64,000 bases of DNA from contig MU004188.1 of NCBI GenBank assembly GCA_010093605.1, positions 809,673-873,672 on the forward strand. Direction: 5' to 3'. A program made the translations under genes and the position numbers. This document shows, piece after piece, positions 54,101 through 58,091 of the stretch. This stretch comes from Lophium mytilinum (taxonomy: Eukaryota). The notes below the pieces were generated by a model. That model had not been told where the DNA came from and made no database searches. It saw only the letters and a list, made by a program, of their open reading frames with translations. Each line of letters opens with the position of its first letter. Position 1 is the first letter of the stretch.

Positions 54101-56312
54101 CGACGGATTCGTTCAAAATAGACCAGATAGATAGATGAAACATTGAAACAGGAAGGTTGAAAAACCGCCAAGCGCGAACATCATGAACATACCATACCGG
54201 GTCAAGATTGAACGAGTGCTATGCGCAGCCTGCTGAGCGTGCGTATGCTTAATGACGGAGCATGTGATTGGCATGATGAGTGGAGCCGCGCCAGGATTAC
54301 TTCGGGCATTATTGAATGCTGATATGGTTGCCCCGGAACAGGACCGACGTCAACTCTGCCAGTGCGATGAGCCTCGACTTGTCCACGATCCTTCCAGTAC
54401 TAGACCCTGAGTCTGAGTACATTGTGCTCTGCTTGGGTGCCATTCTTGATTGCTGAACAGCGCTACAAAGAGCCGCTGCGTCAATCAAAGTGTTCGAAAA
54501 TGAGCTTAGAGTTAGGTGCATCCCTTTTACCTCCAGTCTCAATTCTTGAATCCTATGCCGCAACCCCAAGCAGCAACAACCGAGAGTGCACAGTCCTCCG
54601 GTAAGGCACTGTAGCGCCCTCACACTGCTCCACTTGCTAGCGTGCTCTTCCAGGGTATCAAAATAACGGTCATCTGACTACTGCAACAGGCGTCTATCTA
54701 GCTAGTGAGCCAGAGCTTCGGAAACGACGCCGACTGTCACCCTAGATAGACTCCACTGCCAACTCTGCCTTGGATGAAACACGGCGGCATTCATGAAAAG
54801 TTGGTCTAGTGGGTGCCTTCTACCGTGTGATGCAGTTTCAAAGAGTCCGAAGCTGTGGATCAGATGCTTGGCAGCACCCTTGAGTGTTCGATTAAGAAGA
54901 ACTGCGTCCTATTAGCACATCTCGAAGGGTCCAAGACACACTTTCCCAGTCGTCAGGCCGCTAGTGTATGGTGCGGCGCGCCTAGTCGCACAACTTGAGC
55001 GGTGAACAGTCTGTTTTGACCGCTAAGTTCCGACCTCGAAGCTCTCCAGCGCTGACTGGGGCAATGGTAAGGGCCTCGAGCATATGCAGGGTTTGAGGGT
55101 ATGCATTCGGCACGCCTCGATCGTCGTAAAGATATGTGAAGACTAGACACACTTCGTCCTCTTTGTTGTCTTGTGGCACTTGAGAAGGATCGAGGAGGGA
55201 CGCCGTTCTACGGCTTAGTCCAACGGCGGTTAGCAACACCCAAGCTTCGTCAATGGTCGCATCTGTGCAGCGGCAGCGTCAGTCAGTTCCAGCATGTCCT
55301 ATCATAGGATACAGCATTGACCCGTTCTAGAGGAGCCATCGCCGAGATGCTTGATGAAGCCTTTCTCCATCGATACCTACCCAAACGTATACATTGTGGG
55401 GCCATTAATGAGTCTTGACGTAGCTGATTCAACACTTACTTTTGGGCGCCTCTTGAATTCCCCGCTATGCACCTAGCGCCCGCTTTCGATCGAAGAGAGC
55501 TAGACATTTAGCCGTGCTACGGCCCACATAGCTTCGATGATTTTTGCAGAGCGGCCCAGACACAGCCCCCAAGCCAGGCTAGTATAGTCCAATCACAGTT
55601 TCAAGGCGTATGTGCAGCAAAGCAGGTTACTGTTGCAGTAAGAATGCCTTGACTGATCAGGAGGTCCGCTGGGACGAGTCAAGGTTGGGGGCAATTTCCT
55701 GATCATATGATTACTGACTGTTCGATTGGATGAGTCGAGCCCATGCAAAACTGAGTAGCCTAGAGAGCAACAAACATCCATTCCATTCGTTGATGGCGTA
55801 TATTAGCCTCTGCTGATAAGAACAGGGGTTCGAAAGGAAAGGCTGTTATCAAGTGGATGCTTCCAATTGAGCGGTCAGACTTCGACGTCGGTTGAGCAGA
55901 TTTCAGTAGTCCACACTGAAGGTATTAGCAGGCAAACGGTTCCGCACAAATTAGATACCATCACGTCTCGAAAAGATTCGTGTGTACTTTTCCATTGTTC
56001 TCCGCGTAGTATTGAACTTGGCTATGCGCCTCAGTTTCTATGCTGACCTCCGGATAAGCTGAGCCTGTGTGAGAATCGACCAGCCCTTTGGTCTATCAGT
56101 ACGAGGCTACAGTATATCCGCGAGCTTGAACATTACCTGGTGCCTAGATCCGTATGTCTCGCTATAACTCCGAACCCCAATACGCCATACATCTCCGATG
56201 CACCAATTCCAAGCCATCGACCGCCGAGCCAAGCCATGAAAGGCCAAGCAATAGCCAACCGCCGGGGAGAGAACATGGGCAGAGGGGTTGCTCCCGAATA
56301 CCGCGATCGAGA

Positions 56313-57076
56313 TCACCTCCTTGGACCCGACGGAGCAAGACCCGGGACGTTCGAGTACCGCTCATCACGCTCGGTCTTGAACAACACCTGTACCCAGAAC
56401 TCCTTGCTGTCCTCATCGAACCAAGTCCAGAATCGACCGTCCTTCCGGTCCACCTCCCTCGCCTGCAACTTGAATGAAATCGTCTCGTATGGTTCCGCAG
56501 CTATCAGGAGGAACTGCCAGTTCTTGTCTGGTTCCTCAATTTTCTGCTCAAACGCGCTCATGAACCTCACGCGAGGCGCATTTCCCGGGGGGAGCTCGGG
56601 AAACTGCATCTGGAACAGCAGCCCATTCTGGCGCGTAACCTGGTCGCGAATCTTCGTGACTTTGTAGCCCGGCCGTCCGATCTTGATCATGTTGCGGCGC
56701 ACCTGCACGTTCGGGAGCCCAGGTATGACACCATCGCGGTCTTTGCCTTCCTTCTGTTCCCGCGCTGCGCGGCGAGCAAGGTTTGTCTGGTGCTTGCGGC
56801 CCTGGGTATGGGCGAGATAAGAGCCATCGTTCTGGTGGACAGTCAGGCAGAGGCGGCACTCAAAGCTTCCGACGTGGTTCTTGAAGAAGTAAGGGTCCTT
56901 GTCGAGGTCGATCGTCTCGAGTGCGAGCTTGCGGAGGCGCTCACGGCGGTCCGCGTTCGTTGCAGATTGAGAGGCAACTCCTCCGCCGCCGAACTTCGAA
57001 CCCGCGCGATTCTAGACGTCGTGTTAGCATAACAGAAAGTAGTTGAAAGGAGCGGCGCACCTGCCTGGTAGTCCAT
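56313..57076 (-). CDS. PRP11: U2 snRNP splicing factor 3a subunit 2 (SF3a66/SAP62)
   Basis: MDYQ|NRAGSKFGGGGVAS, RRERLRKLALETIDLDKDPYFFKNH, zinc finger ECRLCLTVH..YLAHTQGRKH, KIGRPGYKVTK, AAEPYETI; in frame only with intron 57064-57012 (GC-AG). Confidence 0.93.
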
Positions 57077-57597
57077 GATTGTCTGTCGCGTTCACGTGGT
57101 AGGAGAGGAGGATGCGAGTGGAGGTTGATGTTGATGCGGAGTGCGTCTCTTCAAGTAGGTTCGAGGCGAATTATTGCAGGGGTCCATCATGATCACGTGA
57201 TATAAATCACAGCCTCCAACATTGGCCATTCACTATTCACCACATGAATGTTACCATCTAGAGTCGACTCGATGGCCGTTACTTATCATCTACTCAAAAT
57301 AGGCTTATCACTGGATTTCTTCTTAATTCCTCAAGTCGTGGGATTATATATTCTAAGGGGGAGCAAGGTCTCGTGCAATTCAAGTAGATTTTAGAGAGTG
57401 GATTCGGTAATCAGCATCAGAATTTTCGAACTGTACTAGATAAATAATAATTGCTCATGTTGTTAGAAACGAGGATTGAAAAGGGGTGAAGTGAAGAACA
57501 CAGGCAGCAGCAAAATTGGCACCAAATAACCCTGGGGGTGGCCTAAGCGTTTTTCAAACGTATATAGTTCGAAAATTTCCTAACCTCTCTCAGGTTA

Positions 57598-57621
57598 CAG
57601 TGGCACAGTGGCACAGTGGCA
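57598..57621. repeat. Short tandem repeat (CAGTGGCA)x3
   Basis: Read directly: cagtggcacagtggcacagtggca. Confidence 0.8.
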
Positions 57622-58091
57622 TGCTCTGGTGAGGACGACCTAGGTAAGAAGCGATTGTACCACCTGGGGCTCACTTGTCTTCACCACCACCGCGGTGGAT
57701 GTAACTATTTGCCCTTTTGGGTACCTTGAGTTTGAGTCTCGCTTGTGGCAACTTCTTTTCAATTTTGCTGCTTGATTGTCTGTGCCGTGTGTCAACGCTC
57801 GATTCATACCCTCGTCCACAATGTAAAACCCCGACCCTCCATGTCAGGTTTTTGATTCTGGCAGCTTTTCCGGTGTATTGAAGAGAATATATGGGAGCCA
57901 ATCCGCTCAGATCCAACTCTCCCTCACACTGATAAGTCCCCCTCGTGTAGAGCAATAGATCCTTGTCATCACAAGAGTCAAATTACGTACTAGTCCTACT
58001 CTTATCGTGGGTACTGTATCTCTGCATATTAGTGCACAGAAGCTGCATCATTTCTCTGCTGCTCTTGTTGTTGTTAGACTGGCTAGCTATC

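Follow-up and report, generated by a model that had tools for sequence, protein, structure and literature searches.

A GC-AG first intron with an overlapping GT donor in the SF3a2/Prp11 gene of Lophium mytilinum

The first intron of the SF3a2/Prp11 gene of Lophium mytilinum is a GC-AG intron that is real and ordinary, that is already part of the public annotation, and that represents a lineage-specific variant. We analyzed a stretch of 64,000 nucleotides (assembly GCA_010093605.1, contig MU004188.1, positions 809,673 to 873,672 of the forward strand), referred to here as the window, and all positions below are those of the window. The reading that we prefer, and to which we assign a probability of roughly 0.7, is that the gene, in Lophium mytilinum or a near-identical strain, carries a normal, constitutively spliced U2-type GC-AG intron of lineage-specific origin, and that any use of the canonical GT donor that overlaps the GC donor 4 nt downstream (the +4 site) amounts to tolerated noise.

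All features of the gene lie on the minus strand and are collected in Table 1. The positions, the two donors, and the 28- and 77-residue products proposed in a previous reading of the same DNA, based on the sequence only, were all found to be correct when checked against the letters and their translation. The start of SF3a2 reads caatc ATG GAC TAC CAG, followed by GCAGGTGCGC at the donor of intron 1, and the order along the minus strand is CAG/GCAGGTGCGC … GCTAAC … TCTAG/AAT CGC GCG GGT, with slashes marking the cuts. The donor region consists of GC (57064–57063), AG (57062–57061), and GT (57060–57059), which means that the exon–intron border carries a GYNNGY motif, GCAGGT (57064–57059).

Table 1. 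Features of the SF3a2/Prp11 gene and its flank, in window coordinates
Feature	Position	Strand	Basis
SF3a2/Prp11 exon 1, coding part, ATG GAC TAC CAG (MDYQ); ATG = 57076–57074	57065..57076	-	Sequence
Intron 1, 53 nt, U2-type GC-AG, phase 0	57012..57064	-	Sequence and exact removal in the X3 contig
Used donor, cag/GCAGGT	57059..57064	-	Sequence and X3 joint; U1 register
Overlapping GT donor, cag/GTGCGC, 4 nt downstream of the GC donor	57055..57060	-	Sequence; use would shift the frame
Putative branch site GCTAAC, branch A 57024	57023..57028	-	Sequence motif only
Acceptor TAG	57012..57014	-	Sequence and X3 contig
SF3a2 exon 2, coding part, 232 codons and stop TGA 56315–56313	56313..57011	-	Open reading frame and Pfam
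Premature TGA met after use of the +4 donor	56941..56943	-	Translation
Second intron, 51 nt, GTAATG…ACTGAT…AAG, 176 nt past the SF3a2 stop	56086..56136	-	Spliced in the X3 contig

In translation, splicing at the GC donor yields a product of 236 residues beginning MDYQNRAGSKFGG. Splicing at the +4 donor yields MDYQAESRGFEV…, which ends after 28 residues at the premature TGA listed in Table 1, and retention of intron 1 yields 77 residues, ending at 56845–56843. A gene model combining the GT at 57060 with another acceptor was considered and rejected, as the only nearby AG dinucleotides, 57013–57012 and 56995–56994, leave the frame broken; among all GT, GC, and AG dinucleotides between 57110 and 56980, there is no GT/AG alternative that restores the frame. 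An assignment to the U12 class was likewise rejected on sequence. U12-type introns have an RTATCCTT-like donor and a TCCTTAAC-like branch site, whereas the donor here is GCAGGTGC and the putative branch site is GCTAAC. The latter may be compared with the CTRAY branch-site consensus, and its putative branch A lies 12 nt ahead of the last base of the acceptor.

Exon 2 carries the Pfam domain SF3A2 (PF16835; E 1.2e-36, 125 bits against a cut-off of 27) and a zf-met zinc finger (PF12874; E 6.7e-06, 26.7 bits against a cut-off of 21.2), which is the combination of an SF3A2 domain and an N-terminal matrin/U1-like C2H2 zinc finger that defines SF3a2/Prp11. A homology search with exon 2 returned 4,243 proteins at E <= 0.001. 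The top match (P0001, “splicing factor 3a [Lophium mytilinum]”) shows 100% identity across all 232 residues of exon 2, and its 236-residue sequence equals the GC-donor product of the window. The length of 236 residues is the sum of 4 and 232 codons, which means that the GC donor is already part of the public gene model. The second-best match is a protein from Mytilinidion resinicola (97%). Judged from domains, homologues, and translation, the gene is SF3a2/Prp11, as had been proposed, and its conserved N-terminus is predicted to be produced only via the GC donor.

Among the best 120 of the 4,243 homologues, 95 have MDYQ directly before NRAGSK. In the other 25 of these 120, the MDYQ start is missing, in some because of intron read-through and in others with unrelated N-termini in its place, a reminder for annotation that, in some of these cases, gene callers missed or read through a first exon of four codons. 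Two gene calls (P0044 and P0048) read through intron 1 and start MDYQV…; since V is encoded by GTN, a GT donor is indicated there. The protein from Diplodia seriata (P0011) has an unrelated N-terminus instead of MDYQ, which is an annotation slip, and one SF3a2 orthologue (P0054) is misnamed “cytochrome P450 [Penicillium atrosanguineum].”

The GC donor was examined in contigs from four sequencing runs. A DNA contig from run X1 (11,891 nt, depth 161) is unbroken over 56000–57400, shows 0 differences from the window, and thus carries both the GC at +1/+2 and the AG at the 3′ end of the intron; the run is perhaps the assembly’s own source sample, in which case it excludes an assembly slip and does not represent an independent isolate. 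A contig from run X3 (1,930 nt, word depth 604) has 0 differences in the blocks 57400–57065, 57011–56136, and 56084–56000, and joins 57011 to 57065, skipping 53 nt with 0 other letters. The skipped segment reads CT..GC on the plus strand, i.e., GC..AG on the minus strand, and GC..AG is the sole standard reading of this joint because the 2 nt of slack in the alignment otherwise give GG..TA or AG..CT. For this stretch, no run is recorded as RNA, and X3 bears that label only as a guess; two GY..AG segments that are present in the DNA contig are missing from the X3 contig, and for this reason we treat the run as RNA-derived. Most simply, X3 represents spliced RNA, with intron 1 removed at its exact borders in the mature transcript, and the genome truly carries the GC.

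Similar joints were found in a close relative (coded organism C). One of its contigs (run X4, record 9), which differs from the window at 21 of 699 exon-2 bases, joins 57011 to 57065 and continues for 20 letters into exon 1; in another (run X5, record 14), the letters at a loose end correspond to the end of exon 1, in agreement with the same mRNA junction. The spliceosome cuts at CAG/GCAGGT; the dominant RNA of the species is spliced at the GC, and the close relative uses the same mRNA junction. The earlier claim that the conserved start depends on the GC donor is thereby borne out at the level of the transcript. Of the two GY dinucleotides of the tandem, only the upstream one is seen as a junction in the contigs of the four runs, which drop rare variants. 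Neither a joint from 57011 to 57061, expected from use of the +4 donor, nor a retained intron was found in these contigs, from which rare isoforms are lost and in which NMD would deplete such products further. Similarly, no contig from X3, X4, or X5 covers intron 1, which is weak evidence as far as rare isoforms are concerned.

To place the intron among its orthologues, metagenome contigs were scanned with an alignment of 35 proteins; the scan confirmed 241 stretches, and 80 loci were retained from them. An intron occurs at the same phase-0 position, after MDYQ, in 47 of the 80 loci, which correspond to 30 distinct introns. The donor is GT in 29 of these and GC in one (L006, GCAAGT); of the 30, 19 have GT at +5/+6 and 27 have GY there, and AGGT at +3 to +6 occurs once (L047, GTAGGT). 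The donors of the loci L025/L029 and L033/L036 are cag/GTATGG and cag/GTACAC. Based on the nearest named protein, which gives a rough placement, loci with GT donors stand beside Coniosporium, Aureobasidium, Phaeosphaeria, Melanomma, Lecanora, Aspergillus, and Microsporum.

The remaining 33 of the 80 loci have an uninterrupted MDYQNRAG, i.e., no intron at this site. Some short loci of this kind are transcripts, as illustrated by three loci assigned to one species by 100% protein identity: L057 and L060 have the intron, and L048 is contiguous. Eleven of the 33 are found on contigs longer than 25 kb (L009, L011, L019, L024, L031, L051, L052, L055, L065, L067, and L073) and are therefore genomic, which implies that the first intron was lost or never gained in several lineages; the nearest named proteins place these loci beside Neophaeococcomyces, Xylogone, Phaeomoniella, and others.

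GC-AG introns are the major non-canonical class and account for 1.009% of 2,302,340 annotated fungal splice-site pairs (PMC7072748, as tabulated in its Table 1). One GC among 30 introns, with the window left out because it was chosen for its GC, is no departure from this background. The one other case, L006, has the donor cag/GCAAGT and a 57-nt intron at the same position, just upstream of 1503, where its exon 2 starts. Its closest relatives in terms of protein identity (L002 and L003, 92.7%; Coniosporium apollinis, P0003, 91.9%) all have GT donors, and its identity to the protein of the window is only 84%, which argues that its GC is a separate event. Since 29 of the 30 orthologous introns are without GC, we regard the GC of the window as a young, lineage-specific case. 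A plain GT donor in the orthologues, with the tandem site not conserved, had been named in the sequence-only reading as counting against its idea. Among the metagenome introns, this is what is seen: the motif and its flanking intron are not conserved, as the donor is plain GT in 29 of 30, AGGT at +3 to +6 occurs in 1 of 30, and a balanced tandem occurs in 0 of 27. These counts rest on metagenome loci, and the combination of GC and AGGT could be conserved within the order.

The strength of the two overlapping registers was compared by calculating duplex energies with the 5′ end of U1, using the conserved U1 5′-end motif, which we assume to apply here and which may differ from this genome’s own U1. 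The calculation is crude, as it uses a fixed register, treats pseudouridines as U, and includes no U6 or U5 contacts. In the GC register, 7 of 9 positions form Watson–Crick pairs and one forms a wobble pair, for an energy of -6.8 kcal/mol; the donor is thus near consensus outside +2, which offsets the C at that position. The +4 GT register has six Watson–Crick pairs and one wobble pair and an energy of -6.7 kcal/mol, and the two sites are thus of similar strength. With T instead of C at +2, the upstream register would reach -11.5 kcal/mol, and a GTAGGT donor of this kind exists in L047. The +4 register falls short of the main site in each of the 27 orthologous introns that have GY at +5/+6; the gap ranges from 5.2 to 16.1 kcal/mol, so that none of the 27 has a balanced tandem.

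The fungal donor consensus includes GT at +5/+6, and most introns should therefore have another GT 4 nt downstream of the first. The second site of the window exceeds this expectation in that it has a full CAG/GT context, and its hexamer, GTGCGC, resembles donors that are in use elsewhere (GTGCGT in L003; GTACGC in L013, L057, L060, and L071). As judged by these comparisons, the balanced tandem is unusual among orthologues, which counts against a purely “generic” reading, and, as far as seen, it seems confined to the Lophium lineage among the loci compared.

These observations suggest how the intron may have come about and how it may be recognized. The donor positions other than +2, namely CAG before the cut, G at +1, A at +3, G at +5, and T at +6, would fit U1 and U6 well, and the CTAAC branch site and TAG acceptor would complete the 53-nt intron, such that U2-type recognition probably proceeds via the strong non-+2 donor positions and the branch site. 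The GC itself is probably not ancient and may have arisen by a lineage-specific T-to-C transition at +2 of a formerly strong GTAGGT-type donor. This transition would have lowered the true donor to the level of the downstream CAG/GT, thereby creating a balanced GYNNGY tandem donor. A single transition at +2 can explain both the GC and the lost dominance over the +4 site, because GTAGGT scores -11.5 kcal/mol and exists in L047. The productive, GC-spliced mRNA dominates, and splicing at the +4 site would give a frameshifted open reading frame of 28 codons that is probably cleared by NMD. We infer that any such splicing is an NMD substrate and tolerated splicing noise rather than a selected switch.

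There are several arguments against regarding the +4 site as noise. This site is unusually competitive: here the two registers lie at -6.7 and -6.8 kcal/mol, and each of the 27 orthologous introns with GY at +5/+6 shows a deficit of 5.2 kcal/mol or more for the corresponding register. The missing +4 junction says little, since both NMD and the building of contigs hide rare isoforms, and, as noted above, GC plus AGGT could be conserved within the order. Furthermore, in PMC4267661, the regulated minority of GYNNGY sites is described as more conserved, as consisting of two alike sites, and as acting mostly via premature stops and NMD.

Regulation of SF3a2 could also depend on a different part of the transcript, namely the spliced intron approximately 176 nt past the stop codon. 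The X3 contig that contains the coding sequence also skips this second intron, on the same strand, by a joint from 56084 to 56136 (cut +1), and the corresponding 52 nt are missing from an X4 contig of organism C. An EJC deposited there would turn the mRNA into an NMD target, the efficiency of 3′-UTR splicing would feed back on SF3a2, and the tandem donor would be irrelevant. The region past the stop has little coding potential: the only ATG-to-stop open reading frames that start there are 64, 62, and 42 residues long, and Pfam searches with five small downstream open reading frames gave nothing at E <= 0.01 (a sub-threshold match to Choline_bind_3 had E 0.09). In Neurospora crassa, triggers of NMD include uORFs, long 3′ UTRs, and 3′-UTR introns, according to a passage in PMC7746235 that cites Zhang and Sachs 2015.

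The second intron is probably a 3′-UTR intron of the SF3a2 mRNA, but the contig may merge neighboring transcripts, or the region past the stop may be a separate noncoding RNA, and there is no conservation with the 80 more distant loci: BLASTN searches with the 870 nt past the stop and with the 397-nt leader gave no match in these loci and only self matches within the window. An Rfam search of 55000–58000, evaluated by E value, gave 0 matches. Altogether, we consider regulation via the downstream intron unlikely, while noting that it is compatible with the preferred reading of intron 1 as an ordinary GC-AG intron.

Two further features of the flanks were observed. An 82-nt stretch just past the stop (56209–56290), in which three ATGGCTTGG-like repeats can be discerned by eye, has a second genomic copy with 10 differences; this copy was found in X1 record 2, X3 record 4, and X4 record 7, and the window itself contains no such copy. 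On the other side of the gene, the X3 contig reaches 397 nt upstream of the ATG (57077–57473, minus strand) and contains nine upstream ATGs, whose uORFs range from 2 to 45 codons. This stretch is either a long, uORF-rich leader or the result of a merge with a neighboring transcript.

The sequence-only reading had proposed that the overlapping donors act as a regulated switch, in which tunable splicing at the +4 site leads to a frameshift and NMD and thereby couples the output of SF3a2 to the state of the spliceosome. The registers have nearly equal complementarity to U1, a balance that none of the 27 comparable introns of the orthologues shows, the +4 product is cut short at 28 codons, and PMC4267661 describes regulated GYNNGY sites as pairs of alike sites coupled to NMD; in addition, NMD is present in filamentous ascomycetes, as stated in PMC7746235. 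On the other hand, the +4 junction is seen in no contig of the four runs, which is a weak test, the motif is not conserved among the metagenome introns (GT in 29 of 30; AGGT at +3 to +6 in 1 of 30), and 11 contigs longer than 25 kb have no intron at this site. A search for literature on autoregulation of SF3A2 via NMD gave nothing on the subject, as judged by titles and the beginnings of abstracts. The identity of the gene, the dependence of the N-terminus on the GC donor, and the quality of the +4 donor (-6.7 kcal/mol) thus hold, while the autoregulatory switch is unsupported, given that 29 of 30 orthologous donors are GT and that 33 of 80 loci are intron-less. We regard the tandem donor as a possible regulatory switch, not one that the data support, and as an explanation that is decidedly improbable.

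A more elaborate and still less probable idea, which we offer as speculation, is that the T-to-C transition in the Lophium lineage made a balanced GC/GT tandem in which the choice of register senses the activity of U1/U6 or SF3a and sets the output of SF3a2 via NMD, maybe together with the intron approximately 176 nt past the stop. If this is so, a constitutive splicing factor of a filamentous fungus would be under the control of an autoregulatory loop that is young and specific to its lineage. Finally, the idea that the genome truly has GT at 57064–57063 and that the C is a sequencing or assembly error, which the sequence-only reading had itself raised and for which we found no support other than the rarity of GC-AG introns (about 1% in fungi), can practically be dismissed, since the separately assembled X1 DNA contig, possibly from the same sample as the assembly, shows GC with 0 differences over 56000–57400 at a depth of 161 and the public gene model accepts the GC donor in its 236-residue product.

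As it stands, the finding matters little: about 1% of fungal introns are of the GC-AG type, the intron is already in the public model, and GYNNGY donors are a described class. A limited literature search found no paper on intron 1 of SF3a2 in Lophium mytilinum. If use of the +4 site and its sensitivity to NMD were true, the intron would provide a compact natural example of how a single transition at +2 leads to unproductive splicing in a core spliceosome gene, as well as a simple system for studying the choice of 5′ splice-site register in fungi.

In known cases of unproductive splicing coupled to NMD in splicing-factor genes, the poison exons or introns are conserved and isoforms sensitive to NMD have been observed. 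The present case resembles these systems in that a core splicing factor gene has a predicted alternative isoform with a premature stop, and it differs from them in that there is neither conservation among the loci compared nor such an isoform in the contigs of the four runs. As for the 3′-UTR-intron type of NMD in Neurospora crassa, as outlined in PMC7746235, the likeness lies in a spliced intron well past the stop (56136–56086); in contrast to the Neurospora case, membership of this intron in the SF3a2 mRNA is only probable here and NMD sensitivity is hypothetical.

GYNNGY sites are the commonest type of alternative 5′ splice site and are “primarily splicing noise,” in the wording of PMC4267661. 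The donor region of intron 1 shares with the tandems described there the two GY dinucleotides 4 nt apart and the fact that use of the second would result in a frameshift and early stop, as is usual in the class, and it shares with the regulated subset the similar strength of both sites. It differs from those human and mouse examples in that, among the contigs of the four runs, a junction is seen only at the upstream, GC site and in that the upstream site is GC whereas the downstream one is a canonical GT. The GYNGYN tandem donors (PMC1779574) are also overlapping GY donors that arise from the donor consensus; those sites, however, are 3 nt apart and keep the frame, whereas the pair in the window is 4 nt apart and shifts it.

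The closest match is to fungal U2-type GC-AG introns, as characterized in PMC7072748: the intron has GC at +1/+2 and AG at its end, is spliced out, is short, and has a near-consensus donor and a CTAAC-type branch site. Nothing essential separates it from this class; what sets it apart is that the GC is absent in 29 of the 30 orthologous introns.
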